The position numbers were made by a program, and so were the translations under genes. The notes beneath the pieces were generated by a model. The model made no database searches and was not told the origin of the DNA. It saw only the letters and a list, made by a program, of their open reading frames with translations. A DNA stretch of 10,543 bases. Origin: a virus. Positions 1-10,543 of this stretch are shown one piece after another. Where the stretch lies: the UHGV virus genome UHGV-0380619. The stretch is one strand, 5' to 3'. Numbering within the stretch: the first letter of the stretch is position 1; the number at the start of each line of letters is the position of its first letter.

Positions 1-3
1 CCT

Positions 4-186
4 TCACGATTTCAACGCAATGACCAGTTTTGCCAGCCCATACAGCATCGGGGACACAGCAACACCGACCGCCACCCACTTAATGGCAAAAGCCAGTGCT
101 CTGCTGATGTCATCAGTTACAGGCGCTTTCAGTTCAAGGCCGTTTTTCATAGTCAACCTCAACAGAATTCGTTTATACTTTTCCAT
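4..186 (-). CDS. Small hypothetical protein (about 60 aa) with a hydrophobic C-terminal segment, downstream of the endolysin
   Basis: Complete ORF with stop at 4-6. ATG at 186..184 is preceded by AGGGAG but with only 3-nt spacing. Alternative starts: GTG at 219 (track start) or ATG at 150 preceded by GAGGT. C-terminal stretch AFAIKWVAVGVAVSPMLYGLAKLVIAL is hydrophobic. No family recognised. Confidence 0.3.
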   Translation of the reverse strand: MEKYKRILLRLTMKNGLELKAPVTDDISRALAFAIKWVAVGVAVSPMLYGLAKLVIALKS

Positions 187-220
187 GTTCTCCCTTGCCT
201 TATCCAAGGTCAGAAACACA

Positions 221-253
221 AAACCCCGCTTGCAGCCAACAAACGGGGTTTTT
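221..253. terminator. Putative bidirectional intrinsic terminator between the endolysin and the small ORF
   Basis: Hairpin CCCCGCTTG/CAAACGGGG at 224-248 (9-bp stem, one mismatch, 7-nt loop), flanked by AAAA upstream and TTTTT (249-253) downstream on the plus strand; the minus-strand copy is followed by TTTTGTGTTT. Confidence 0.45.
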
Positions 254-342
254 ACTTTTATTCACTTAGGTTTTGCCAGTTCTCAGGATTTCGTGTTATC
301 CGTCCGCATTAGCCAACGTCATTTTTCAACAAAATATTCTGC

Positions 343-876
343 TTATTTGTCAATTCCCCAGCACGCCAGCGCGCTCTCCTGGTCACGCCGTGAGACCTGT
401 CCATAGCAGTTATTTGAACGAATACGGCAGTCTCTGCCACCGTCCTTAATCCACCAGCGAATCGCCTCACATGCTCCCCTGCGATCGCCAGCATTAATTC
501 GTCTGTAAAACGTCGACGGGAAACACTTACCGGGACCAATGTTGTACGGACAGAATGACGCGATCCCCGCTTTCTGGGGTTCGGTCAATGGCACTTTGAT
601 GTTTTTCTCCACCCATGCCAGCGCCTTATCACGCTCAATGGCGTTAACCCGGTCGCATTTTTCCTTCGACAACTTCATGCCCGGAACGACAGGTTTGCCA
701 TCCACCAGGATGGCACCGCGGCAGATGGTCCAGATACCCGCGCCATCACGGTATGCCGTGGTGTGGTTACCTTCCTTTTCATCCAGAAACTGGTCGAGAA
801 TGTCAGGCGCAGGCGCACCAGCGGCAATCAGCGCCAGAACGGCAGCCGACAGGCCGTATCTGATTTTTGCGTTCAT
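343..876 (-). CDS. R: SAR endolysin (T4-lysozyme-like muramidase, phage 21 R type)
   Basis: 177-aa ORF. N-terminal Gly/Ala-rich weakly hydrophobic signal-anchor-release segment (GLSAAVLALIAAGAPA). Catalytic triad spacing E-8aa-D-5aa-T (EGNHTTAYRD GAGIW T). Strong recalled similarity to P21 R / DLP12 RrrD. Confidence 0.9.
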   Translation of the reverse strand: MNAKIRYGLSAAVLALIAAGAPAPDILDQFLDEKEGNHTTAYRDGAGIWTICRGAILVDGKPVVPGMKLSKEKCDRVNAIERDKALAWVEKNIKVPLTEPQKAGIASFCPYNIGPGKCFPSTFYRRINAGDRRGACEAIRWWIKDGGRDCRIRSNNCYGQVSRRDQESALACWGIDK

Positions 877-981
877 GGATATTTATCAGGATTTATCGGT
901 TTCTGAGCCCTGGATATGTTTATCAGTTCCAGCCTGTTGCCTCAGGCTGCTAACAGGTCAATACAATCATGAGGATTATTT

Positions 982-1107
982 ATGGACAATAACACCATTT
1001 CTCTACAGGAGTTGCTCGACAGCATTTCCAGGCTTCGGGAAGACGTGAATACCCTTACCGTCGCCTTCTCATATCTGGCATTCTCAATTCCAAGGGAACA
1101 GATGTAA
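982..1107 (+). CDS. Candidate small ORF (41 aa) on the opposite strand, between the endolysin and DUF1327 genes
   Basis: ATG at 982 preceded by GAGGA (971-975) at 6-nt spacing; translation MDNNTISLQELLDSISRLREDVNTLTVAFSYLAFSIPREQM; TAA at 1105-1107. Possible sigma70-like promoter upstream (TTGCCT 937-942, TACAAT 962-967). Below the ORF-track size cutoff. Unverified. Confidence 0.2.
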   Translation: MDNNTISLQELLDSISRLREDVNTLTVAFSYLAFSIPREQM

Positions 1108-1219
1108 TCAACGCTGGCATCAATCCAGTTTGAATCATGCAATCCCAAATGGTCTCAGGAACAACAAGACTCTTTCAGGCGGCTTGCTGTATTACTGGAT
1201 GAAAAATATGCTGGTAAAA

Positions 1220-1564
1220 TTACCATTTCGGCGGACTCTTCAGAGAACCCGTAATTATTCCCGGTAGTTTTCCTCTGTAGGTTATCAACACATCCTGCGC
1301 CTCTAAAATTACGGGGCGCTTTTCCGGCGACTGCTCATCCCCTTCACATAACCCGGCAGCAACATCCAGGAAGACCTGTCTGATGCTCCTTCTGGCTGCT
1401 GCCTCATAAAACTCCAGCGCGGCACCTTCAACACGGTCCAGCGAGATGTCCAGGTCAAAAATTTCACCGTCAAAGCGTTTTTTGTCCCGTAACGCTAAAG
1501 TTACCGTAACTTTATTCTCAAAATTGCGGATCCCTTTCACAATCAGTTCATAGTTTTGAGTCAT
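1220..1564 (-). CDS. DUF1327-family protein (YdfR-like) inserted between holin and endolysin
   Basis: 114-aa ORF. ATG at 1564 lies 4 nt after the holin stop and is preceded by GGGGAGAG. Translation MTQNYELIVKGIRNFENKVTVTLAL... resembles my recollection of YdfR, which sits between essQ and rrrQ in Qin. Family assignment is from memory. Confidence 0.6.
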   Translation of the reverse strand: MTQNYELIVKGIRNFENKVTVTLALRDKKRFDGEIFDLDISLDRVEGAALEFYEAAARRSIRQVFLDVAAGLCEGDEQSPEKRPVILEAQDVLITYRGKLPGIITGSLKSPPKW

Positions 1565-1568
1565 TGAA

Positions 1569-1784
1569 TTACTCTCCCCGTGCAGCCTTACGCTTGTCTT
1601 CTCTGATTTTGAAGTACAGATTTGTCAGATAAGTCAGGAAGCCCAGAACCAGACTCCCCAGTACACCAATCGCAGCCCACTGTGACGGACTGACCTGATC
1701 AAGCCACTGTAAAAACCAGTAGCCAGCACTGCCTGCGGAGGTGCCGTAGGCAATGCCCGTTGAAATTTTGTCCATGGATTTCAT
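1569..1784 (-). CDS. S: Class II pinholin (phage 21 S21 type, 71 aa) with dual-start motif
   Basis: Translation [71 protein letters not shown] is near-identical in pattern to S21/EssD as recalled. Dual start Met1-Lys-Ser-Met4. Strong SD GGAGGTGA upstream of ATG at 1784. Two transmembrane segments. Confidence 0.85.
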
Positions 1785-1921
1785 AGCCTCACCTCCGCAG
1801 CGAACGGATGGCGTAGTTATAAGGGGAGCGAAAAAGAAAGAATGCGCGATTGCGCAATATGGTAACGTCAGGGTATTATCCACTGGCTGAATAGATCACT
1901 TCACGTTTTTTGTTCCTTGCC

Positions 1922-1949
1922 GCCCGTATCCATATGCGGGCTTTTTTTT
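1922..1949 (+). terminator. Plus-strand intrinsic terminator (hairpin plus T8)
   Basis: GCCCGTAT..ATGCGGGC hairpin at 1922-1941 followed by eight T at 1942-1949 on the plus strand. Confidence 0.45.
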
Positions 1950-1955
1950 GCATGT

Positions 1956-1985
1956 AAAAAGGCCCCAACACATGTGCGTGGGGCC
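1956..1985 (-). terminator. Minus-strand intrinsic terminator upstream of the holin gene
   Basis: Hairpin GGCCCCA...TGGGGCC at 1961-1985. On the minus strand it is followed by UUUUU (plus-strand A run at 1956-1960). Confidence 0.5.
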
Positions 1986-2185
1986 TGAGAGTATACATGG
2001 TTTCAGTCAACTGCATGGTGCCGGGTGCCTCCCGGTGAATTCAGTACCAGCACCTGAATCCGCGATTATCCCATATACCTACTCGCTGATTGCCCATCCG
2101 CACAGGGGGATTCACCATGCCAGTTTCTTTTAACAAACTCCCCGCAAAACAGACAACTGTCAACCGTCTGAATTGTGAGACATTT

Positions 2186-2211
2186 AAAAAAAAGGCCCGC
2201 AAAAGCGAGCC
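2186..2211 (-). terminator. Minus-strand intrinsic terminator immediately 3' of the tRNA cluster
   Basis: On the minus strand: GGCUCGC-UUUU-GCGGGCC (7-bp stem with one G.U, 4-nt loop) followed by U8 (plus-strand A8 at 2186-2193). Confidence 0.45.
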
Positions 2212-2225
2212 GGGAAAAATAAGTC

Positions 2226-2302
2226 TGGCGCGTTGTACTGGATTCGAACCAGTGACCGATTGCTTAGAAGGCAATTGCTCTGTCCGGTTGAGCTAACAAC
2301 GC
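2226..2302 (-). tRNA. tRNA-Arg (anticodon UCU)
   Basis: Reverse complement folds as a cloverleaf: acceptor GCGTTGT/ACAACGC, anticodon stem ATTGC/GCAAT with loop CTTCTAA (anticodon TCT), T-arm ACTGG-TTCGAAT-CCAGT, 3' GCCA. Confidence 0.9.
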
Positions 2303-2315
2303 AGGGTACAGATAA

Positions 2316-2392
2316 TGGACCGCCATCGAGGACTCGAACCCCGCGCAACCAGCTTCGAAGGCTGGTGCTCTATCCTGATGAGCTAATGGCGG
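2316..2392 (-). tRNA. tRNA-Arg (anticodon UCG)
   Basis: Reverse complement: acceptor CCGCCAT/ATGGCGG, D-arm GCTC..GAGC, anticodon stem CCAGC/GCTGG with loop CTTCGAA (anticodon TCG), T-loop TTCGAGT, 3' TCCA. Confidence 0.85.
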
Positions 2393-2399
2393 TATGTGA

Positions 2400-2475
2400 T
2401 GGTGGCCCTTGCTGGATTTGAACCAGCGACCTGGCGATTATGAGTCGCTCGCTCTCACCACTGAGCTAAAGGGCC
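2400..2475 (-). tRNA. tRNA-Ile2 (anticodon CAU, lysidine type; alternatively tRNA-Met)
   Basis: Reverse complement GGCCCTTTAGCTCAGTGGTGAGAGCGAGCGACTCATAATCGCCAGGTCGCTGGTTCAAATCCAGCAAGGGCCACCA: anticodon loop CTCATAA, T-arm GCTGG-TTCAAAT-CCAGC. Closely resembles E. coli ileX as recalled. Confidence 0.85.
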
Positions 2476-2515
2476 GGGAGCCGCATAATAACGACGCGTA
2501 ATTAATTCTTCAATA

Positions 2516-2794
2516 TCATCCGTTCTGGCTGACTAAATCCTGTACTTCCCGAACCGTCTGCTCAAAACGTTCAGTCTCCAGCTCAACGCCAATTGCACGA
2601 CGCCCGAGCGCCAGTGCCGCTTTCACTGTCGAACCCGACCCCATGAAAAAATCTGCAATCAGGTCACCCGGACGACTGCTAGCGCTGATTATCTGCTGCA
2701 GCATTTCTGCCGGTTTTTCGCACGGATGTTTCCCGGGATAGAACTGCACCGGTTTATGCGTCCAGACATCGGTATACGGCACCTGCGCCGTCAC
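2516..2794 (-). pseudogene. Truncated N6/N4 DNA methyltransferase remnant (C-terminal portion only)
   Basis: Translation carries the C-terminal AdoMet-binding motif region (DLIADFFMGSGSTVKAALALGRRAIGVELE). No DPPY-containing N-terminal half; the reading frame closes at a stop at 2876-2878 and the first candidate start is GTG at 2794. Confidence 0.7.
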
Positions 2795-2852
2795 GCCAAA
2801 ATACCGCCGCAGTCGGCATTCACAACCACCAGCGCATTTAACGTTCAGCCAT

Positions 2853-2877
2853 AAAAAAACCCGCTCGCGGCGGGTTT
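2853..2877 (-). terminator. tR'-like intrinsic terminator downstream of Q
   Basis: On the minus strand: AAACCCGC-CGCGA-GCGGGUUU hairpin followed by U7 (plus-strand A7 at 2853-2859, hairpin 2860-2874). Confidence 0.55.
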
Positions 2878-2945
2878 AAGCTGTGTGGCGAAGTAACCAC
2901 TCTTAACATACTGACATACTTTTTGCGGACCGCACTAATCATTTT
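2878..2945 (-). promoter_or_regulatory. Candidate late promoter / Q-utilisation region (pR'-qut-like), position inferred
   Basis: Directly downstream of the Q stop. On the minus strand there are tandem -10-like hexamers TATGTC and TATGTT (plus-strand direct repeat ACATACT-G-ACATACT at 2906-2920), followed about 40 nt later by the terminator. No convincing -35 found. Confidence 0.25.
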
Positions 2946-3326
2946 TTACTTTTTTAGCAGCCAGTCGTCCATCTCCAGTCTTACCCCCAGCACAGACAAA
3001 CATCCGTCAATAAACCCTTCGGCTATCTGCATCTCAATTCGTATTGCTTTTTCGCTTTTCTTTCTCGTCCTGGCTATCTGTCTTTTTGATATTCGCAACA
3101 AATAATGAGCAATGAGAAGCGAATACTCCTCAGGTTTTTTCTGCTTCAGACGAGCAAGACAGTTTTCAATGATAAGTCCGTCATCATCGCAGCAGGCCGG
3201 ACGTGGTTTAGTGGCAGATGGTAAAAGTCCTTTGAATCCGGCAGCGATCGGAGAATAGTCCACCCCGGTGTTACCACTTGCAGCCCATGCCCCCCAGCGT
3301 TCAAGAACCATCTGAATATCACGCAT
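2946..3326 (-). CDS. Q: Late-gene antiterminator Q (phage 82/21 / QuuD-like family)
   Basis: ATG at 3326 (MRDIQMVLERWGAWAA...) preceded by GGAGAAAG; the track's upstream start at 3341 is TTG. Cys-rich motif ACCDDDGLIIENC. Position immediately upstream of the tR'-like terminator and late region. Confidence 0.8.
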   Translation of the reverse strand: MRDIQMVLERWGAWAASGNTGVDYSPIAAGFKGLLPSATKPRPACCDDDGLIIENCLARLKQKKPEEYSLLIAHYLLRISKRQIARTRKKSEKAIRIEMQIAEGFIDGCLSVLGVRLEMDDWLLKK

Positions 3327-3343
3327 CAACTTTCTCCACAAAA

Positions 3344-4339
3344 TCAGGCCAGCACGCCAATTGCCAGCGCACGATCGATAAAACGAAATATCAGCTCCAG
3401 CTGGGAGCCATACTTCTCTTCAAATGCCACGGTATCCGCATGCAGCTCGTCGTGATGCTTTCTGCACAAAGGCAACACAAAGAGGTCATGCGCTTTTGTA
3501 CCCATTCCCCCCTGACCGTGGCCTATCAGGTGGTGGGGATCATCAGCTGGCTTTCCACAACATGCACACGGCTGTGTCTTAACCCAGCGCGTGTACTTTT
3601 CATTAACCCAGCGGCGACGTTTTGGGCGTAACATAAAAGACTCCGGCGACTCCGGATCCACTTTCAGCGCCAGCACCTTTTTCGCTTTATCCTGGATAAT
3701 GCTGGTGGCAGGAACCGAAGGAACAAGGTCACTCTCCCGGGTGACAGACGGCACAACAGGCTTCGGTAATCTCAGTGCCTTACGGGCTGCACTTTCCGGT
3801 AAGGCATCCGCCAGGTCATTACGAATCAGCCACCAGCACAGTTCCGGCATTGTCACAACGTGACTGTCATCAAAACCGAGATCACGGCGCACAACAGATA
3901 ACACCCAGCGGGCACAGTTATCCGTTGCCATTGATTCCAGCCGTTCCGTGAACTGATCGCGCAACTGGTTATCGCAGTGCCAGCACAGACGGATTGCGCC
4001 CGGAGCGTGCCGCATTGTGGTCATGTTCTCGCTGTGCCAGTCGGAATGAGGCCACTGGCAGCCTTTTTCACGAAGTAACCAGCTTTCAAGACATTCCACG
4101 CCACCAGCACGACGGATCACTGCCTCATTGCGGAACACGGCCCGAACGGCAGGATCATCCGCCAGCGGTTGTGATGCCGCCGGAACGGCACCACTGGCGA
4201 AAGATGAATAACGCTCCGGCTCAGGCTCCAGCAGGACACGCCCCTGCATAAACAGGGGCATCAGCTCTGAACCTGGCCTGAACAATACGATCCCCATACG
4301 CGGGGCAATTTCAGGGGTCAGTAGTGCTCTCACAGTCAC
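3344..4339 (-). CDS. DUF968-family phage protein with HNH-like Cys/His motif (YdfU-like)
   Basis: 331-aa ORF. C-terminal CACCGKPADDPHHLIGHGQGGMGTKAHDLFVLPLCRKHHDELH motif. Sits immediately upstream of Q as ydfU does in Qin. Start uncertain: the first codon at 4339 is GTG; internal ATGs are possible. Confidence 0.7.
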   Translation of the reverse strand: MTVRALLTPEIAPRMGIVLFRPGSELMPLFMQGRVLLEPEPERYSSFASGAVPAASQPLADDPAVRAVFRNEAVIRRAGGVECLESWLLREKGCQWPHSDWHSENMTTMRHAPGAIRLCWHCDNQLRDQFTERLESMATDNCARWVLSVVRRDLGFDDSHVVTMPELCWWLIRNDLADALPESAARKALRLPKPVVPSVTRESDLVPSVPATSIIQDKAKKVLALKVDPESPESFMLRPKRRRWVNEKYTRWVKTQPCACCGKPADDPHHLIGHGQGGMGTKAHDLFVLPLCRKHHDELHADTVAFEEKYGSQLELIFRFIDRALAIGVLA

Positions 4340-4340
4340 C

Positions 4341-5183
4341 TCAATGAACGGTATCGAGCAGCTTTAACAGCTCAGGAAATCGGGATTCGAAGAAATGCGG
4401 CTGCGTCTCGCGCGGATTTGCAGGACTGGTGATGTTCTTGCCGAACATGCAGCCTTTCGCCGTCAGCGACCAGAATTTTTTGATGTTGTTAATCGCGGTA
4501 CGGCTGTATCGTTCGCGTTGTTCAACGATCCCCAGCTTCACCATCTGGTGATATGCCTGATTAGCCGTCAGGCGGATACCATACTGTTTCAGCAGTGCAC
4601 TCAGCGACAGCGTGGGGCGACTTGAGCCATCAGGCGCGTCAGCAGGAGCATCAATGGCATAGCGCGGTGCCAGATTCGGTAAGCCAACAGCCTCCTGAAG
4701 CTTCTGACAGGCTCCAAGCACTGATGAGTTAGACAGGTTTAATTCCCGGCGCATAAAGTCCAGCAGGATCACGCCAGCCTGCATCTTGTCAGCAGCCTGC
4801 CCGGATAATTTTTCCGGTGTGCTGGTTACCATATCGAAAGTACGGATCACCTTCAGATGGAATGACGGGCTGATCCACATTGCATAGGCATACACCAGTT
4901 CATTGCAGACATACGTTCCTCCATTCCGCCCTTCTATTTTACTTACTGGTTTACTACCCAAATTTTGGGTAGTTTCATTGAATGAACCGACACCCAAATT
5001 TTGGGTATCGATCAATTCCTGAACCAGCTCAGTAATCTGTTGGCTGGAAAGAAACTTTCCCGGCTCCTTAGTTCTGGCATTTGCACCAGATGCAACAGCA
5101 GCCCGATGCAGATCGTTCAGGCTGTAACGCCCATAAGCATCACGACGAACTTCAATACCATCAATGACCATCAGATTATTCAT
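4341..5183 (-). CDS. KilA-N domain protein with KilAC/ANT-like C-terminal domain (antirepressor-like)
   Basis: ATG at 5183 (MNNLMVIDGIEVRRDAYGRYSLNDLHRAA...) preceded by GAGGAG. N-terminal KilA-N-like region and C-terminal antirepressor-like region, joined by a linker encoded by the palindromic repeats. Confidence 0.75.
   Translation of the reverse strand: MNNLMVIDGIEVRRDAYGRYSLNDLHRAAVASGANARTKEPGKFLSSQQITELVQELIDTQNLGVGSFNETTQNLGSKPVSKIEGRNGGTYVCNELVYAYAMWISPSFHLKVIRTFDMVTSTPEKLSGQAADKMQAGVILLDFMRRELNLSNSSVLGACQKLQEAVGLPNLAPRYAIDAPADAPDGSSRPTLSLSALLKQYGIRLTANQAYHQMVKLGIVEQRERYSRTAINNIKKFWSLTAKGCMFGKNITSPANPRETQPHFFESRFPELLKLLDTVH
4955..5008. repeat. Two copies of a 16-bp element ACCCAAATTTTGGGTA, each an inverted repeat, 36 bp apart, inside the KilA-N gene
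   Basis: Copy 1 at 4956-4971 (extended palindrome TACCCAAA-T-TTTGGGTA at 4955-4971); copy 2 at 4992-5007. They encode the repeated peptide TQNLG in the linker. Confidence 0.8.
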
Positions 5184-5202
5184 ACTTCGTTTCTCCTCTT
5201 GA

Positions 5203-5592
5203 TCAGGCGGCTGCACCCGCCGTTTTCTCGTACTTACTGATAGTGATCTCGACCTTCCCTTCCGGGATAACCGGTCCCCACTCCACCAGCATTCTTTTCA
5301 CCTGGCTGTCGTCTTCCCACACACCCGCGTGGGTCAGGGCGTCAAACAGCGCCTTGTTATAGTTGTCCAGATCGCGGATCCGGTTATCCGGAGGAAACAA
5401 CACGATCTCCACTGAAGCAGGTGCCGACGTTGGTTTCGGCAGACGACGTAACTGCTCAACTATTGCTGTGCACGCCGCACTCTGGAATTTTCGCCCCGCC
5501 GCGCTTATCAGGCTCTTACCAGCAAATGCCCCTTTGTTGGGGTGTCGCCAGTAGGTGTTCACGCTGGGTGGAAAAGGCAGAATCAGCTTCAT
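5203..5592 (-). CDS. rusA: RusA-family Holliday junction resolvase
   Basis: 129-aa ORF MKLILPFPPSVNTYWRH...RDLDNYNKALFDALTHAGVWEDDSQV, matching the RusA motif pattern. The start ATG overlaps the upstream gene's stop (ATGA). Confidence 0.88.
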   Translation of the reverse strand: MKLILPFPPSVNTYWRHPNKGAFAGKSLISAAGRKFQSAACTAIVEQLRRLPKPTSAPASVEIVLFPPDNRIRDLDNYNKALFDALTHAGVWEDDSQVKRMLVEWGPVIPEGKVEITISKYEKTAGAAA

Positions 5593-5915
5593 ACTTTCAG
5601 CCCCCTCTCATGTAACCAGTGGGCTGCACGCAGCCTGGCGTTTTCCTCACCAGCAAGCAGTGCGCGGATAATCCCGGCCACCTCGCTGTCGTCGTCCTTC
5701 ACCGCGGTATGAAGCGTGATGCCCCGGGCCACGCCACGCTTTATCGTGATGACGCCTTTTTTCTCCAGTGCGCGAAGATGCTCCACCGCTGCATTCACTG
5801 AACGGTATCCCAGCATGGTAGCCACCTCCTGATTGGTTGGCGGGAAGCCACGTTCTTTCTGGTAAGAAATCAGCATATCCAGCACCTGCTGCTGGCATTG
5901 AGTTAACGTCGTCAT
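5589..5915 (-). CDS. LexA N-terminal DNA-binding-domain-like protein lacking the S24 peptidase domain
   Basis: From ATG at 5915: MTTLTQCQQQVLDMLISYQKERGFPPTNQEVATMLGYRSVNAAVEHLRALEKKGVITIKRGVARGITL, which aligns by eye with the LexA N-terminus. No Ser/Lys protease domain. Start overlaps the upstream stop (TAATG); stop overlaps the rusA start. Confidence 0.75.
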   Translation of the reverse strand: MTTLTQCQQQVLDMLISYQKERGFPPTNQEVATMLGYRSVNAAVEHLRALEKKGVITIKRGVARGITLHTAVKDDDSEVAGIIRALLAGEENARLRAAHWLHERGLKV

Positions 5916-6403
5916 TAAGCCCCCACGTAATTCCCTGACAGATACCACTCTTCACCCGATACAGCGCGCTTGCTGCTTTTCCGTAAACACCGCTCACGAC
6001 GCGCAAGAAAATTGTTTCGCTCTTGCTGGGAGTGGCTTTCACGGAATGCCGCCATCCACACCGTTGCAGCACGACGGTATAAGCCCCTGGACTCCAGTTC
6101 TTCAGCCTGACGGGTCAGGCACAAAATCACCCAGGGGTCGTTAGTGCCGACATAGAAATTGCTCACAGGTATGGTTTCAAGAACAGGTTGCAGTTTCTCC
6201 TCCTGCGATATCTCAGCCTGGTGTGGGAAATGTCTGCGTGTTTTCCCTTCACAACGGTGAGCCACACGCCCACTCTGACGTAACTTGCTTGCTGACTGCA
6301 GTACGCGCTGCCGTGAGTAACCTGCAAAAGCATCCGCAATGTCTCCGGAAGTACAGCCCGGATGGGCTTCAATGAATTTCTGAACTTCATTCAAAAGACT
6401 CAT
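5915..6403 (-). CDS. PerC-family transcriptional regulator-like protein (YfdN-like) with an N-terminal HTH-like region
   Basis: C-terminal LTRQAEELESRGLYRRAATVWMAAFRESHSQQERNNFLARRERCLRKS resembles PerC/Pch proteins. ATG at 6403 preceded by GGGGGTG; the track start at 6409 is GTG. Confidence 0.6.
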   Translation of the reverse strand: MSLLNEVQKFIEAHPGCTSGDIADAFAGYSRQRVLQSASKLRQSGRVAHRCEGKTRRHFPHQAEISQEEKLQPVLETIPVSNFYVGTNDPWVILCLTRQAEELESRGLYRRAATVWMAAFRESHSQQERNNFLARRERCLRKSSKRAVSGEEWYLSGNYVGA

Positions 6404-6405
6404 GA

Positions 6406-7347
6406 TCACCCCCTGAATCCTTCCGGGATCTGGCTGTAGTCCACGTTGTCGTAACTGGCTTTGAAGTACGGGTCCTCACGTTTTTCTGTGTGCGTGCTGA
6501 CGGACGGCGATAAGCGCAGGGAAAGCTCATCCCATTTTTCCCGCAACTTCGACGGGCTGAGCACGTTACGGCACCAGAACGGATCACGGCTGACGCGGCT
6601 GTACATCTCGCAGATTTGTTTGTGAGTACGACCATCCTGCACACACATCAGGCGAATTTCGTTTGCCCATGCTGTCCAGTTCGGTTCTTTGGGACGAACC
6701 ACCTCGCCGTCACATTCGGCGGCCTGCTCGTACAGGGCGATGATTTTTTTCCAGAGCCACTGTGCGCAGGTCAAATCATCCTGCGTTCCCCACTGGCGCT
6801 TTTTAGGGCTGAATACAACCGCATCAGGATGGCGAGTTAAAAAATCCTGTTCAGCCGTCTGCGTGTCCGGTTGCAAAGCGTCCGGACGAGAAGGTTTTTT
6901 ATCTGACGGATCATGTTTTGATTTTACTGACGGATCCCCGCCAGATTCTGACGGGTGAAAACACGCTTTTTTGCCAGATTTCGACGCATCAAATTTTGAC
7001 GGGTCAGATTTTGATGCGTCAGATTTTGACGGGTCAGAATCTGACAGTTGAGAAAATGCCGCAGCCTGAAGCTTCGCAACGTTAAGCTGATAAACATTCG
7101 ACGCATTGCGGTTACCCTGGCGACGCGCCTTACGCGTTAACCAGCCTTCTGCTTCCAGCCGTGCGATAGCCGTTCTGACGGTACTCATCCCCGCGCCAAT
7201 CTGGCGGGCAATGGTTTCAATTGATGGCCAGCACACACCCTCGTCATTACTGAAATCAGCCAGACGGGCCATAATTGCCACACTGGATAATTTCATGCCT
7301 GACGCTGCGCAACCATCCCATACATAGCCGGTTAATTTGGTGCTCAC
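6406..7347 (-). CDS. Replication initiator (lambda O-like; HTH replisome-organiser N-domain with low-complexity linker)
   Basis: GTG start at 7347 preceded by a strong SD AAGGAGGTG with an in-frame TAA immediately upstream. N-terminal HTH region (LTGYVWDGCAASGMKLSSVAIMARLADFSNDEGVCWPSIETIARQ). Central pentapeptide repeats (SDPSK/SDASK) encoded by iterons. Confidence 0.8.
   Translation of the reverse strand: MSTKLTGYVWDGCAASGMKLSSVAIMARLADFSNDEGVCWPSIETIARQIGAGMSTVRTAIARLEAEGWLTRKARRQGNRNASNVYQLNVAKLQAAAFSQLSDSDPSKSDASKSDPSKFDASKSGKKACFHPSESGGDPSVKSKHDPSDKKPSRPDALQPDTQTAEQDFLTRHPDAVVFSPKKRQWGTQDDLTCAQWLWKKIIALYEQAAECDGEVVRPKEPNWTAWANEIRLMCVQDGRTHKQICEMYSRVSRDPFWCRNVLSPSKLREKWDELSLRLSPSVSTHTEKREDPYFKASYDNVDYSQIPEGFRG
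6901..7048. repeat. Origin-like iteron array inside the O-like gene (about 8 copies, consensus AGATTTTGACGGGTC, 15-bp period in the core)
   Basis: Repeated TCTGACGG(G/A)TC-type units at about 6903, 6926, 6947, 6980, 6996, 7011, 7026 and 7041. Each unit contains a short inverted repeat (TCTGAC..GTCAGA). An AT-richer stretch follows at 6891-6930. Confidence 0.7.
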
Positions 7348-8201
7348 TTACGCACCTCCTTATGCTTTTCGTTCAGTTCCGAGTCCACCAGCCCGGCAAC
7401 GAATACACCATCGTTGATGTAGTCGTAGAGCGATGAAGCCAGCGGAGACTGAACTGAAACCAGCATCGGATAAAGTTGTTCTAACCAAACGCGGTGAATT
7501 TCAGCCATGTAGAGGTAAACAACGTGGGCATTGTGCGCGACACATGAAGTATCAACCTTTCCGATCAGCGCCTGTTCCATCTGGTTAAAGGCATTGATGT
7601 ATGCCTCTTTGAACTGGGCAGCACGTTTACCCGTGAAACCCATAGCAAGAAACGCAAAGCCATCGCGGGTTATTTGATAGCAAGGTAGTTTGCGAGTACC
7701 GCCGTTGGGCTGGCGTACCAAAATTGATGTCTCCGCAAAATTGCGGGCACAAAACTCTGGAGAACAATCCAAAATGCGAATCTTTTTCAGAACATCGTCA
7801 TGACGTTTAGAGAAGAAGTCAGCAACAGCCAAAGAAGATGTAACAGCCTGACCATCAACGATGGCAATTTCAGGTTGAGAGAGGGTTGGGAGAGTAGTCA
7901 TAGTGACAGCCCCGGTAGTCAGTTTTTTAGAAAACTCACCACATGGGACGCCAATCACAGAGGTGGTGAGACGTACAGGGTTGGCGTTACCGGAGACTAC
8001 CGAACCCGGCCCGACCGAAGTCGGCCCTGTACGCCCCACCATAATTTGGGCGTAGCAATGCTCATGACACGAAAAAACCGCATGAGCGCGGTTATGCTCA
8101 GTAATCAATTTCAGGACGCCAATCCCGGCAACGGATTTTGCCGCTGCCAGAACAATATAACGCCCAGAATTATCAGAATCAATCATTACTGGTTTGCTCA
8201 T
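7344..8201 (-). CDS. Rha-family phage regulatory protein with an unassigned ~100-aa N-terminal extension
   Basis: Rha-like core from about residue 101 (MTTLPTLSQPEIAIVDGQAVTSSLAVADFFSKRHDDVLKKIRILD...). ATG at 8201 preceded by AAGGGA; alternative internal start ATG at 7901. The N-terminal 100 aa have coding-like codon usage. Stop overlaps the O-like GTG start. Confidence 0.65.
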   Translation of the reverse strand: MSKPVMIDSDNSGRYIVLAAAKSVAGIGVLKLITEHNRAHAVFSCHEHCYAQIMVGRTGPTSVGPGSVVSGNANPVRLTTSVIGVPCGEFSKKLTTGAVTMTTLPTLSQPEIAIVDGQAVTSSLAVADFFSKRHDDVLKKIRILDCSPEFCARNFAETSILVRQPNGGTRKLPCYQITRDGFAFLAMGFTGKRAAQFKEAYINAFNQMEQALIGKVDTSCVAHNAHVVYLYMAEIHRVWLEQLYPMLVSVQSPLASSLYDYINDGVFVAGLVDSELNEKHKEVRK

Positions 8202-8210
8202 GATCGTCCC

Positions 8211-8549
8211 TTATCTCCCTGAACTTTTGCCTGAAATGCTCAAGCGGGCTGAAGCATTCATGTTCATAGCCTTCACGGAGGTAGATAACCCGTTGTGTTT
8301 CCGGCTCCCAACGAATGACTCTGACGGGCACTCCGTAGTGATCTTTGAACCAGCGGTTAACTTGTCGCAAAGGACTGTCTCCTTCTGCCGGTTGAAATCC
8401 CCCACAGCCCACTCTGCAAAGCAGTGGGTTACAATTTCCCTGTCACCTGGTACATTCACTGCATAGCAATACTCCACCTTCGCTTTTCCACCCGGTACAG
8501 GAAGCGCAATCAGTTGCGAGCGACGGTAGTGTGTTGTTAAACTGTTCAT
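8211..8549 (-). CDS. Hypothetical protein (112 aa), translationally coupled to the upstream gene
   Basis: ATG at 8549 overlaps the upstream stop (ATGA) and is preceded by GGAGAAA. It overlaps in a different frame with a second protein-like ORF at 8179-8412, so the assignment is ambiguous. Confidence 0.4.
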
Positions 8550-9187
8550 GCGTTAGTTTCTCCACAACCAGAAGCAATCGACGCCACGACGCCCGGAGCT
8601 GCACACTCGCGGGCGTTACTCTTTTCCGGCGCACAAAAAACACGAAATAACAGTGTTAAATGCTCCTGCCACTTCGCCATTACTTGGTAGCTGTTCTCTT
8701 CGATTTGCTCACGCTCAGCTTGGTCAATAACTCCATCAGCAGTTGCCTTGCGTAAGTACTGGGAATGCTTGCCAATCCATTCTATTGACTCCATCAGCCG
8801 CTGATTAATGTCACCATTGTCAATGTCATCAATGACCACCAGCGGCACAAACACCCCATTACTACGACGGGCTATTGCATCCGTTACATGCCTGGTACCA
8901 CTGGCATCCTGTAAAACCATGGCCCACTCAAGTGGAAAAATTTGATCCCCACCGCTACGCAGTCTGTTATGCAATTGATCTTTTGCTGGGGTGATATCAT
9001 CAGATTTATACAAACCAAGAATTTCTGCTGCTTCCTCATAGCCATGAGGTAAATCAGCAATCGTTCTTCGTATTGCTGCCACCAGCCATGCTGGTTGCTT
9101 ATCAACTTTCCATTCAGGTTCTTTACCCACGTTTAAGCCCTCATATCTGTGGTTTCTGTAAATCGATTTATCCATTAGATTTTTCAT
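8546..9187 (-). CDS. CII-like / YdaT-like early regulatory protein (family uncertain)
   Basis: Long ORF immediately downstream of the Cro-like gene. Start not resolved: ATG at 9187 or 9175, both with weak SD; the track start at 9244 is GTG and would overlap cro extensively. Confidence 0.5.
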
Positions 9188-9368
9188 AAAGCTCAGGTTT
9201 AAATGGCAACCGTCCGCAAGTTCTATATGCAGCCTCTGCTGCACGTCCTTTTGGAATTAACTGGCCAGGACGGTTTCGCCACTGATAAACGGCTTCAGTT
9301 GTTATGCCGAAAAAAGCAGCAACTTTCTCAATGCTGCCGAAGTAGCTTTCGATATCGTCAGTCGTCAT
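9168..9368 (-). CDS. cro: Cro-like repressor (YdaS-type HTH)
   Basis: 66-aa ORF. ATG at 9368 preceded by GGAGGG. Motif VAAFFGITTEAVYQWRNRPGQLIPKGRAAEA resembles the YdaS/Cro family. Divergent from the CI gene across an operator-rich intergenic region. Confidence 0.75.
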   Translation of the reverse strand: MTTDDIESYFGSIEKVAAFFGITTEAVYQWRNRPGQLIPKGRAAEAAYRTCGRLPFKPELYEKSNG

Positions 9369-9465
9369 ATGCCCTCCAAACTAAGTTTTATTAGATGTTA
9401 ATTATCAATCTATCTTAGGTCAATAAAAACTAAGATTACTTAGTAATTAAAGAAATGGTGCTCCT
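9369..9465. promoter_or_regulatory. Immunity-region control region: three operator-like 18-bp sites plus candidate pR (and implied pRM)
   Basis: Sites AACTAAGTTTTATTAGAT (9379-9396), AACTAAGATTACTTAGTA (9428-9445) and a weaker reverse-orientation site ACCTAAGATAGATTGATA (9403-9420), with centres 24-25 bp apart. Candidate minus-strand pR: -35 TTGACC (9418-9423), 17-bp spacer, -10 TAACAT (9395-9400). Confidence 0.55.
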
Positions 9466-10092
9466 ATGGAAACGGTTGGTCAGCGTATAAAAGCTCTGAG
9501 AAGAGTTACCAGAACGTCCCAGAAAGAATTGGGTAAATTTTGTGGAGTAAGTGACGTTGCTGTGGGGTACTGGGAGAAAGACATCAATGTCCCTGGTGGG
9601 GAAGCACTTTCAAAATTAGCGAAGTTCTTCAATACGTCAATAGATTACATTCTTTATGGTGCGGAGTTTGAAGGCAAACTCGTCACAAACATGCGCAGAG
9701 TTCCTGTAATCTCGTGGGTTCAGGCTGGGCAGTTTACTGAGTGCAGGACAGCAGAAGTGTTTAGTGAAGTAGACAAGTGGGTAGATACATCATTAAAGAT
9801 TGGTGATAACTCATTTGCATTGGAGGTTAAAGGCGACTCCATGACTAACCCTAACGGCCTCCCAACAATACCAGAAGGCGCAACAGTGATTGTAGATCCT
9901 GATGCAGAACCCCGGCATGGAAAAATAGTCATCGCTAGACTTGATGGAACAAACGAAGCCACAGTAAAAAAATTAGTTATCGATGGCCCTCAAAAGTTTT
10001 TAGTGCCATTAAATCCCCGGTACCCCAACATCCCGATCAATGGTAATTGCCTCATCATTGGTGTAGTCAAAGGAGTTCAATACGAACTCTAG
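9466..10092 (+). CDS. cI: CI-type prophage repressor (HTH-XRE N-domain plus LexA-like S24 autopeptidase C-domain)
   Basis: 208-aa ORF. N-terminal HTH (QKELGKFCGVSDVAVGYWEKD). C-terminal S24 motifs: GDSM (Ser nucleophile) and VKKL (Lys), with a QAG candidate cleavage region. Confidence 0.9.
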   Translation: METVGQRIKALRRVTRTSQKELGKFCGVSDVAVGYWEKDINVPGGEALSKLAKFFNTSIDYILYGAEFEGKLVTNMRRVPVISWVQAGQFTECRTAEVFSEVDKWVDTSLKIGDNSFALEVKGDSMTNPNGLPTIPEGATVIVDPDAEPRHGKIVIARLDGTNEATVKKLVIDGPQKFLVPLNPRYPNIPINGNCLIIGVVKGVQYEL

Positions 10093-10112
10093 CCCCCCTT
10101 TTCTCTAACCAA

Positions 10113-10148
10113 AACACCGAACTAAGAAAAGTTTGGTGTTTTCTCTTG
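10113..10148 (+). terminator. Intrinsic terminator downstream of cI
   Basis: AACACCGAAC / GTTTGGTGTT stem (10113-10122 and 10131-10140, one G.U), 8-nt loop, followed by a T-rich run TTCTCTTG. Confidence 0.55.
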
Positions 10149-10180
10149 CCATCAAAACTAAGTTAAGTTAGATTTTATAT
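10146..10180 (+). promoter_or_regulatory. OL-like operator with candidate pL
   Basis: AACTAAGTTAAGTTAGAT at 10156-10173 shares the AACTAA-N6-TTAGAT pattern with the OR sites. Candidate -35 TTGCCA (10146-10151), 17-bp spacer, -10 TAGATT (10169-10174). Confidence 0.4.
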
Positions 10181-10281
10181 CAAAGATAACGAACAGGCAG
10201 GACGCCCACGAAGTAGCCGCCCGGGGCATATGAAGTCCAGGATGATTCGTTAGCAACAAAAAAGCGCCCTACAGGACGCTT

Positions 10282-10293
10282 AGCTCTTTAACA
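10282..10293 (+). promoter_or_regulatory. boxA-like antitermination element (GCTCTTTAACAA) downstream of the candidate pL
   Basis: 12/12 match to the rrn-type boxA core as recalled. A GC hairpin (about 10262-10279) lies immediately upstream rather than downstream. Confidence 0.35.
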
Positions 10294-10543
10294 ATCTTGG
10301 TATCCCCGTAACAAAAGAGGGTTCTATGGTCATATTCTGTGCTTACGTTCATCCTAATGGATTTTTTATCAGCACCAACCAACAAGACGAATTCTGGATT
10401 CTATGAACCGCCCCGGGTTTCCTGGAGAGTATTTTATCTGTGAACTCAGGCTGCCAGATCATCGTTTCCGATGGAAGCATAATAAGCTTTTTCTGCTTCT
10501 GCCGGAGGAGTATGGCCCAGCCTTTCCAGCAATCGTCGATTGT

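Follow-up and report, generated by a model that had tools for sequence, protein, structure and literature searches.

Pinholins of the P21 holin S type form small heptameric pinholes that depolarize the membrane without releasing soluble endolysin, and SAR endolysins are exported in a Sec-dependent manner, remain tethered to the membrane and are released upon its depolarization. In phage 21 (S21-R21-Rz/Rz1) and DLP12 (essD-rrrD-rzpD/rzoD), the lysis cassette consists of a PF04971 holin with an MKSM dual start, a lysozyme that has an E-D-T triad and begins with a segment of the SAR type, and an embedded two-component spanin. In the Qin prophage of Escherichia coli K-12 (essQ-ydfR-rrrQ-rzpQ/rzoQ), an S21-type holin gene lies 4 nt ahead of ydfR, a gene of the DUF1327 family, which overlaps the gene of a RrrQ-type lysozyme by 4 nt; rzpQ in turn overlaps rrrQ. 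The order holin, DUF1327 ORF and R is also found in H-19B (Stx1) and in Stx1a- and Stx2c-converting phages, which are functional phages.

The window analysed here, a stretch of 10,543 nt from the virus genome UHGV-0380619, carries on its minus strand a pinholin gene, ydfR 4 nt downstream, a gap of 343 bp and a SAR endolysin gene. The features of the region are as follows.

4..186, minus strand: 60-aa ORF, basic protein with a C-terminal transmembrane domain (phrog_1115, function unassigned)
220..252, minus strand: hairpin with a weak T tract, resembling an intrinsic terminator, 3′ of the endolysin gene (terminator scan)
343..876, minus strand: RrrQ-like SAR endolysin, 177 aa (PF00959, E 3e-24; phrog_7 "endolysin")
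982..1254, plus strand: convergent gene of 90 codons (phrog_2411), acidic product with no transmembrane domain, a pseudogene here
1220..1564, minus strand: YdfR/DUF1327 protein, 114 aa (PF07041 DUF1327, E 7e-43)
1569..1784, minus strand: S21-type class II holin (pinholin), 71 aa (PF04971 "P21 holin S", E 1.4e-35)
1950..2149, minus strand: match to the STnc100 family of sRNAs (Rfam RF02076, 133 bits, E 8e-30)
2226..2475, minus strand: three tRNA genes, Arg-TCT, Arg-TCG and Met/Ile-CAT (ARAGORN, Rfam)

The original prediction described this cassette as non-canonical, a view that comparative synteny contradicts: the holin-YdfR-endolysin order is shared by K-12 Qin, about 90 fetched loci and 101 phage records. 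The window and Qin have the same four gene families in equal order, the spanin being predicted for the window, and the endolysins are about 89% and the YdfR cores about 81% identical. The ydfR product of Qin is 103 aa long and differs in its C-terminal tail; the window further differs in carrying, between ydfR and R, an insertion of 343 bp that holds a convergent gene, and in small membrane-protein genes between R and the putative Rz. Phage 21 and DLP12 resemble the window in the PF04971 holin with its MKSM dual start, in the SAR-type segment and triad of the lysozyme (3HDE, E 1e-16) and in the embedded spanin, the counterpart of which is seen in relatives of the window cassette, whereas they have no DUF1327 gene and no spacers, and their endolysin is of the RrrD lineage, not of the RrrQ lineage. 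The YdfR of Stx phages is only 66% identical and often unannotated, with stx and nanS-p upstream and other flanking accessory genes. Upstream of the lysis cassette of the window, the STnc100 match lies between the tRNA cluster and the holin gene. Lambdoid and Stx-type prophages typically carry such tRNA genes between Q and S, and the three-tRNA cluster is also found in relatives. The best match to the backbone of the whole window, strain 774, has a compact holin-YdfR-R-Rz arrangement. The locus is very probably an ordinary late-gene lysis cassette of the Qin/H-19B type from a lambdoid E. coli prophage, with its spanin outside the window.

Profile searches confirmed the protein identities proposed earlier, namely an S21-type pinholin, a DUF1327 (YdfR-like) protein and a SAR endolysin. 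The 71-aa holin matches PF04971 with 121.5 bits (Pfam gathering score 26) and also phrog_20/9876 "holin", and 100% identical holins occur in E. coli phages that have been induced, vB_EcoS-689R5 among them. Its N-terminal MKSM is a putative dual-start motif (Met1/Met4) that would yield antiholin (S71) and holin (S68). A weakly hydrophobic segment rich in Gly, Ala and Ser (residues 8–27) is the predicted TMD1. The hydrophobic TMD2 comes next (residues about 34–56, the only stretch with a Kyte-Doolittle score above 1.5), and the C-terminus is charged. The endolysin has the catalytic triad E35/D44/T50 within an E-x8-D-x5-T motif (residues 35–50, EGNHTTAYRDGAGIWT) and matches the solved SAR endolysin R of phage 21 (3HDE/3HDF, E 1e-16), as well as 4ZPU (RrrD). 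Its N-terminal SAR-type segment (YGLSAAVLALIAAGAPAP, residues 7–24, nt 805–858) is 56% Gly, Ala and Ser, with a maximum Kyte-Doolittle score of 1.77, and a Pro after AGA in this N-terminus may disfavour cleavage by signal peptidase.

The 114-aa protein matches PF07041 with 145 bits (gathering cut-off 25) and phrog_406 with E 4e-68. The tight coupling to the holin gene noted in the original prediction also holds, because the ydfR ATG lies 4 nt past the holin stop codon and its Shine-Dalgarno sequence, GGGGAGAG, is located within the 3′ end of the holin gene. The conserved core of YdfR comprises residues 1–72 (nt 1349–1564) and consists of three beta strands followed by one helix, and residues 73–114 form a variable tail that is predicted to be disordered. 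A first AF2 run with 18 close homologues gave a pLDDT of 47 and was discarded; a second run, to which distant homologues were added, gave a confident beta-beta-beta-alpha core, with a pLDDT of 83–95 across residues 11–70 and about 50 in the tail (model 2). A Kyte-Doolittle scan of YdfR found no hydrophobic or membrane segment (maximum score 0.85). The ORFs of holin, YdfR and endolysin are intact, with pN/pS values of 0.08–0.3, and the value of about 0.3 for ydfR indicates purifying selection. YdfR is best read as a small, soluble cytoplasmic protein encoded by a late-expressed accessory gene.

The spacer between ydfR and the endolysin gene has exactly the length given originally, 343 bp (877–1219), but it is not empty, as it contains most of a plus-strand ORF of 90 codons that overlaps the 3′ end of ydfR by 35 nt and is cut at codon 42 by TAA in place of CAA (1105–1107). 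Translation and alignment showed that this ORF differs from those of THO-006 and phage 783R2 by a single C-to-T change. All 535 complete E. coli genomes with the segment are one base off the 61-mer of the window, and this base is taken to be C, as in THO-006 and 783R2. The T (TAA) allele was found neither in the viral contigs searched nor in these 535 genomes; it also occurs in a metagenome contig (L108), which is another mosaic and in which R is immediately followed by Rz. The pN/pS of the convergent gene is 0.27, with 27 of 40 differences at codon position 3, and in relatives the gene is under purifying selection. The spacer might also have arisen by decay of the C-terminal extension found in a long form of YdfR; this was rejected, as its six-frame translation has no similarity to that extension.

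The absence of an adjacent spanin, the remaining structural claim, is correct within the window and does not extend to its relatives. No Rz-like ORF, nor a PF03245 match with an embedded outer-membrane spanin, was found in window positions 1–342 or elsewhere near R. In near-identical loci (98% over window positions 1–1724), the 60-aa ORF and then an ORF of 43 aa come between the endolysin gene and Rz (PF03245, E 4.5e-50), and a Pro-rich Rz1 lipoprotein, MKLFALTLPLVVSAC..., is embedded in the +1 frame of Rz. This order occurs in loci L001, L002, L005, L035 and L043, with Rz at +1718 from the ydfR start, and every complete locus with the 60-aa ORF arranged as in the window continues through the 43-aa ORF to Rz with Rz1 embedded. 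In this type of cassette, R and Rz are parted by two small membrane-protein genes, the first being the 60-aa ORF. Because complete loci of the same arrangement carry Rz/Rz1, the missing spanin can be explained as an effect of the window edge. The start of the hydrophobic 43-aa ORF is predicted about 15 nt and that of Rz about 155 nt before window position 1, and Rz/Rz1 very probably lie just beyond the edge, past the two small membrane-protein genes; a spanin pair beyond the window start, which the original prediction named as a refuting finding, is present in relatives and is expected in the source contig. Against this placement stands that the best whole-window matches part from the window at about position 338, relatives being mosaic exactly here. 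The hairpin at 220–252 would probably be read through by Q-modified polymerase, and the region has no more terminator-like sites than expected from shuffled sequence.

An S21-type holin occurs in 438 phage records, and 101 of these also have YdfR, those of H-19B and of Stx1a and Stx2c phages among them. In all of about 90 Escherichia loci compared (94), the holin gene ends 3–4 nt before ydfR, with holin alleles ranging from 73 to 100% identity, and the distances from ydfR to R and from R to Rz vary in discrete steps. The DUF1327 family is very small and occurs only in prophages of Enterobacterales. Distant homologues, from Citrobacter, Sodalis, Cronobacter and metagenomic phages, are 72–94 aa long and consist of the 72-residue core alone. 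They sit after the tape-measure gene, after gpL, before gpJ or before terminase genes, always in the direction of the late genes, and seven of the eight examined are in tail modules or ahead of terminase genes, far from any holin. Directly behind the DUF1327 gene, a small convergent ORF is found in seven of the eight distant homologues and in the window itself. BLASTP and hhalign comparisons among these convergent ORFs gave nothing significant (best E 0.012–0.014, probability about 3%), so that they fall into at least four families without detectable homology, and a Pfam search of them gave no credible match; a "DUF1823" label on the convergent ORF of PhiR12_1 was dismissed as below threshold (E 0.023). 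For P0166, no related loci were found among the viral contigs searched. The pairing of DUF1327 with a convergent gene as a two-gene cassette is thus only a positional observation.

By analogy with phage 21, Q-antiterminated late transcription would yield an S21-type pinholin and antiholin from the dual start, together with a Sec-exported, membrane-tethered SAR endolysin. Triggering of the pinholin would then depolarize the inner membrane, upon which the endolysin would be released and refold, and Rz/Rz1 would finally fuse the inner and outer membranes. YdfR would stand outside this machinery, its 72-residue core being a mobile accessory gene of late operons (a "moron") that in Escherichia has become fixed 3–4 nt behind the holin gene and would therefore be made in step with the late proteins. 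The convergent gene of the spacer, inactivated here by a nonsense codon, would be a second accessory gene. YdfR is likely to be dispensable for lysis, because DLP12 lacks it, only 101 of the 438 records with an S21-type holin have it and the protein has no hydrophobic segment.

What YdfR does late in infection is the least secure part of this model; its most likely activity would be to bind host RNase E at the catalytic N-terminal half, and possibly also RNA. Several phage proteins act on RNase E (T4 Srd, T7 gp0.7 and phiKZ Dip), and host proteins such as RapZ and RraA bind it; YdfR may resemble these as a small protein that contacts the enzyme, RapZ and Srd likewise binding the catalytic half. 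K-12 YdfR was reported in 2026 to bind Rne 1–597 in a two-hybrid assay and to co-purify with Rne 1–598, and its residues 1–72 suffice for binding to the catalytic half (PMC13232886). RNA also co-purifies with it, although according to the authors this RNA may stem from a contaminant, and overexpression of ydfR hardly changed the transcriptome (PMC13232886). The link to RNase E comes from this one paper (PMC13232886) and was reported for the K-12 protein, to whose core that of the window protein is about 81% identical; the binding fragment coincides with the core defined by homology. An action of YdfR by way of RNase E or RNA decay is a tentative proposal. Taken as a whole, an ordinary cassette with two accessory insertions, in which YdfR possibly acts on RNA decay, is the explanation that we moderately favour. 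A broader version, in which the DUF1327 core is a mobile phage module directed against the RNase E catalytic half or RNA decay, moving among late-operon sites of lambdoid phages, usually with a prophage-expressed convergent gene as an unrecognized two-gene cassette, is quite unlikely.

The original prediction suggested that DUF1327 could be a lysis-timing factor. In this case YdfR would be a cytoplasmic protein, translationally coupled to the pinholin in a fixed ratio, that binds the charged cytoplasmic C-terminus of the holin, or else the precursor of the SAR endolysin, thereby advancing or delaying triggering. The invariant junction of 3–4 nt in 94 of 94 loci, despite holin identities of 73 to 100%, and the purifying selection on ydfR are consistent with such a role, although a single ancestral insertion would explain the junction equally well. 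A ydfR deletion has also scored in a screen for envelope defects, a result that could point to a role in the envelope, but we suspect that the deletion was polar on the lysozyme gene downstream. In the literature searched on essQ/rrrQ and DUF1327, no study of YdfR in lysis was found. The membrane or periplasmic location, or the confinement to lysis cassettes, of antiholins and lysis-timing regulators such as S107, S21-71, T4 RI and P1 LydB is not seen in YdfR, which has no membrane segment and is missing from about three quarters of the S21-type-holin records and from DLP12. Of its eight examined distant homologues, seven lie in tail modules or ahead of terminase genes, and its overexpression in K-12 caused no growth defect (PMC13232886). 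These observations make a timing function very improbable.

A role in counter-defence or superinfection exclusion, in which YdfR with or without the convergent gene travels among late-operon sites with no specific link to RNase E, would agree with the moron-like positions in several late modules, the recurrent convergent ORF, the small size of the family and its confinement to prophages of Enterobacterales, and an Acb2/Tad1-like anti-defence gene nearby in one context (L106). It is nevertheless unlikely, as the convergent ORFs have no detectable homology across their families and compact cassettes such as those of K-12 Qin and strain 774 have no such partner. Least probable, and by our estimate only a slight chance, is that the cassette is a decaying remnant in a defective prophage, with YdfR and the neighbouring small ORFs as functionless passengers. 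The nonsense codon in the convergent ORF, a DNA methyltransferase fragment upstream and the cryptic state of K-12 Qin point in this direction, but the intact and constrained holin, YdfR and endolysin ORFs do not, and identical YdfR and near-identical cassettes occur in induced, isolated phages (vB_EcoS-783R2, PhiR12_1 and H-19B).

The ordinary cassette with accessory insertions has consequences mainly for YdfR, as thousands of E. coli genomes, K-12 included, already have the holin-YdfR-lysozyme order in their annotation. For DUF1327 as a lysis gene the result is negative, since its homologues are not bound to lysis cassettes, and YdfR is a candidate for a temperate-phage protein that modulates RNA decay in the host.

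The genes of the lysis cassette, identified by ORF listing and by Pfam and PHROG scans of the window, are all located on the minus strand.

1569-1784, minus strand: holin, 71 aa (PF04971 'P21 holin S', E 1.4e-35)
1220-1564, minus strand: DUF1327/YdfR protein, 114 aa (PF07041, E 7e-43)
877-1219: interval between ydfR and the endolysin gene, 343 bp
343-876, minus strand: lysozyme, 177 aa (PF00959, E 3e-24)
220-252: hairpin 3′ of the endolysin gene
4-186, minus strand: 60-aa ORF with a C-terminal transmembrane domain (phrog_1115)

The holin begins with MKSM, the dual-start motif of S21, and in its hydropathy profile a weakly hydrophobic segment rich in Gly, Ala and Ser comes before the only strongly hydrophobic one (residues 34-56). 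The lysozyme harbors an E-x8-D-x5-T triad at residues 35-50 and an N-terminal segment, YGLSAAVLALIAAGAPAP, in which Gly, Ala and Ser account for 56% of the residues; among solved structures, it matches the phage 21 SAR endolysin (3HDE/3HDF, E about 1e-16) and RrrD (4ZPU). The ATG of ydfR is located 4 nt downstream of the holin stop codon, with a Shine-Dalgarno sequence within the 3′ end of the holin gene. No Rz-like ORF was found in the window, where the endolysin gene is followed only by the hairpin and the 60-aa ORF. In gene content, gene order and the lack of a spanin inside the window, the original prediction is correct as written.

The spanin genes of this cassette almost certainly lie just outside the window, as judged from its relatives. 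In all five comparison loci that share the downstream arrangement of the window (L001, L002, L005, L035 and L043), the 60-aa ORF, at +1378, is followed by a 43-aa ORF with a single transmembrane domain and then by a 152-aa Rz (PF03245, E 4.5e-50; phrog_13 'Rz-like spanin'), whose start projects to about 155 nt before position 1 of the window. The +1 frame of this Rz encodes MKLFALTLPLVVSAC... and then a proline-rich stretch, and its predicted product is a typical Rz1 lipoprotein. The proposed absence of an adjacent spanin thus holds within the window, but not in these five relatives, in which Rz/Rz1 follow. In this cassette type, the 60-aa protein, which is basic, is encoded between endolysin and Rz, together with a second small membrane protein, the 43-aa product (phrog_4906; L001 8858-8989, minus strand). 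A role of both proteins in lysis control is conceivable.

The cassette had been regarded as non-canonical. However, the same order is annotated in many E. coli genomes and phages and in the Qin prophage of K-12 MG1655 (essQ-ydfR-rrrQ-rzpQ/rzoQ), where the junctions are 4-nt or overlapping; the cassette is of a very common, already known Qin/H-19B type. The 2.1-kb region has at least a partial match in 4987 of 5426 complete E. coli genomes, and many E. coli loci, labelled 'class II holin / YdfR family protein / lysozyme', are 98% identical across window positions 1-1724. By tblastn, DUF1327 occurs in 101 phage records, all of them from Escherichia, with H-19B, BP-4795, mEp460 and numerous Stx1a/Stx2c-converting phages among them. 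In a synteny table built from 94 fetched loci, ydfR always begins 3-4 nt downstream of the holin end, the endolysin start takes discrete offsets (+308, +370, +414, +688 or about +830-870), and Rz follows R either directly or at about 310, 500 or 650 bp. The cassette is thus fixed except at two insertion hot spots, the ydfR-R and R-Rz junctions. Two contigs (L011 and L013), from MAGs labelled Veillonella parvula and Bacillota, have essQ-ydfR-rrrQ loci of the E. coli type and are most likely mis-binned.

The 343-bp interval, originally described as a spacer, contains a gene on the opposite strand. A 90-codon ORF (982-1254, plus strand; phrog_2411), which is preceded by GAGGA-N5-ATG and overlaps the 3′ end of ydfR by 35 nt, is intact in the relative THO-006 and in the induced phage vB_EcoS-783R2. 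Across the whole interval, the window differs from both by one substitution, C to T at 1105, which changes codon 42 from CAA to TAA (stop at 1105-1107). The two main alleles of the ORF show 40 differences, 27 of them at third codon positions, with a pN/pS of 0.27, compared with 1.2-2.3 in the other frames; the one exception, the antisense frame that shares the wobble positions, is interrupted by a stop. This ORF is therefore a real gene that has become a pseudogene in the window. The 61-mer of the window has no exact match in the 535 complete E. coli genomes carrying the segment; each is one base off, and this base is taken to be C at 1105, the nucleotide present in THO-006 and 783R2. Because the T allele recurs in a metagenome contig with a different downstream mosaic (L108), the TAA is not a sequencing error. 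In the phage PhiR12_1, an unrelated convergent ORF (phrog_2572) occupies the same position.

It had also been suggested that the DUF1327 protein acts as a lysis-timing factor, but it is better regarded as the product of an accessory gene expressed late. Distant DUF1327 homologues from Citrobacter freundii, Sodalis ligni, Cronobacter dublinensis and metagenomes consist of the core only (72-94 aa), and none of the eight examined occupies the holin-endolysin position. Their genes, always co-directional with late genes in these eight contexts, lie after the tape-measure gene, after or before gpL, between gpI and gpJ, or directly before the terminase genes, with a GH19 endolysin/Rz pair a few kb upstream. 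Moreover, S21-type holins occur in 438 phage records versus only 101 with DUF1327, and the DLP12 prophage (essD-rrrD-rzpD/rzoD) lacks DUF1327. These positions and holin-only systems argue for a late-operon accessory gene rather than for a part of the pinholin/SAR system or a regulator of it. The original interpretation is therefore only partly supported: the observation is confirmed, the cassette was already known and common, and the lysis-timing reading is disfavoured.

A single ancestral insertion, later spread by recombination, is the simplest explanation for the fixed slot behind the holin in Escherichia. Such recombination is visible in the window, where the holin allele is a 100% match to one lineage and the ydfR allele goes with another, the breakpoint lying near 1724. 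Over the window as a whole, the backbone is best matched by E. coli strain 774 (98% over 338-10296), whose compact cassette reads holin-YdfR-50 bp-R-Rz; with the THO-006-type similarity, this makes the window a mosaic of a strain 774 backbone and a THO-006-type lysis region. THO-006-type identity (98%) stops inside the holin at about 1724, and strain-774-type identity starts at about 338, just below the endolysin stop. Other features were observed elsewhere in the window.

1922-1941: hairpin with a T tract on the plus strand
1950-2149, minus strand: strong STnc100 sRNA family match (133 bits), with a tRNA cluster on one side and the holin on the other
2516-2794, minus strand: C-terminal fragment of a DNA methyltransferase, 92 aa
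7959-8046, minus strand: C4 antisense RNA match (82 bits), in the early/regulatory region
8071-8147, minus strand: isrK Hfq-binding sRNA match (69 bits), beside the C4 match

By projection from the strain 774 relative, the C4 and isrK matches lie within or beside a Rha-family regulator gene. The closest relative (L107 4386-4682) has the methyltransferase annotated as a pseudogene, and in THO-006 it is a full 349-aa gene.

The YdfR family is small, with only 78 representatives among 1.84 billion clustered proteins, and among species-representative genomes it is confined to Escherichia and Shigella apart from two MAG hits, which are probably mis-binned. In its alignment, about 72 conserved residues form a core, and the tails that come after it are lineage-specific, giving forms of 103, 114, 116 and 176-183 aa. 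One homologue (P0149) joins the window-type tail to an unrelated N-terminus; the C-terminal tail and a coiled-coil extension are shuffled as separate modules in P0149, P0029 and the 287-aa P0139. With distant homologues added, AF2 models the core confidently (pLDDT 83-95) as three strands plus a helix and predicts the tail to be disordered. The structure search returned no significant relatives, and hydropathy analysis revealed no hydrophobic segment in YdfR. The gene is under purifying selection (pN/pS about 0.3).

Seven of the eight distant DUF1327 genes are directly followed by a small convergent ORF (58-182 aa), at spacings from 42 nt to a 17-nt overlap, and the same pattern is found in the window and PhiR12_1.

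L097-L106 (loci with distant homologues), about 3730-4320 per locus: convergent ORF behind DUF1327 in nearly every case
Window, 982-1254: convergent ORF behind DUF1327
L005, 3488-3748: convergent ORF behind DUF1327

The convergent ORFs represent at least four PHROG families, with no homology between them detected by BLASTP or hhalign, and the compact cassettes of Qin and strain 774 lack them. DUF1327 and the convergent ORF could form a two-gene mobile unit, or could share insertion hot spots. In one metagenomic phage contig (L106), an anti-defence gene of the Acb2/Tad1-hairpin family (314-595) is located about 3 kb upstream of the distant DUF1327-like gene.

A lead to the function of YdfR comes from a bacterial two-hybrid screen (Göpel et al., RNA Biol 2026, PMC13232886), in which codons 1-72 of K-12 ydfR were isolated on three occasions. 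In that study, RNase E 1-597 interacts with full-length YdfR, and Strep-YdfR co-purifies Rne 1-598 as well as DNase-resistant nucleic acid, of which a contaminant could be the source; overexpression of ydfR alters few transcripts and causes no growth defect (PMC13232886). A ydfR deletion is also among the scorers in the Paradis-Bleau envelope screen (supplementary lists), a score suspected to reflect polarity on the downstream lysozyme gene. The 72-residue interacting fragment coincides with the core defined independently here by homology and structure, and we therefore tentatively favour, as possible but somewhat doubtful, a role of YdfR as a modulator of RNase E or of RNA decay while the late genes are expressed. 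T4 Srd and phiKZ Dip, unrelated to YdfR in sequence and fold, provide analogies in outcome to such a role. What remains of value is a testable RNase E hypothesis, together with the association between DUF1327 genes and convergent ORFs.
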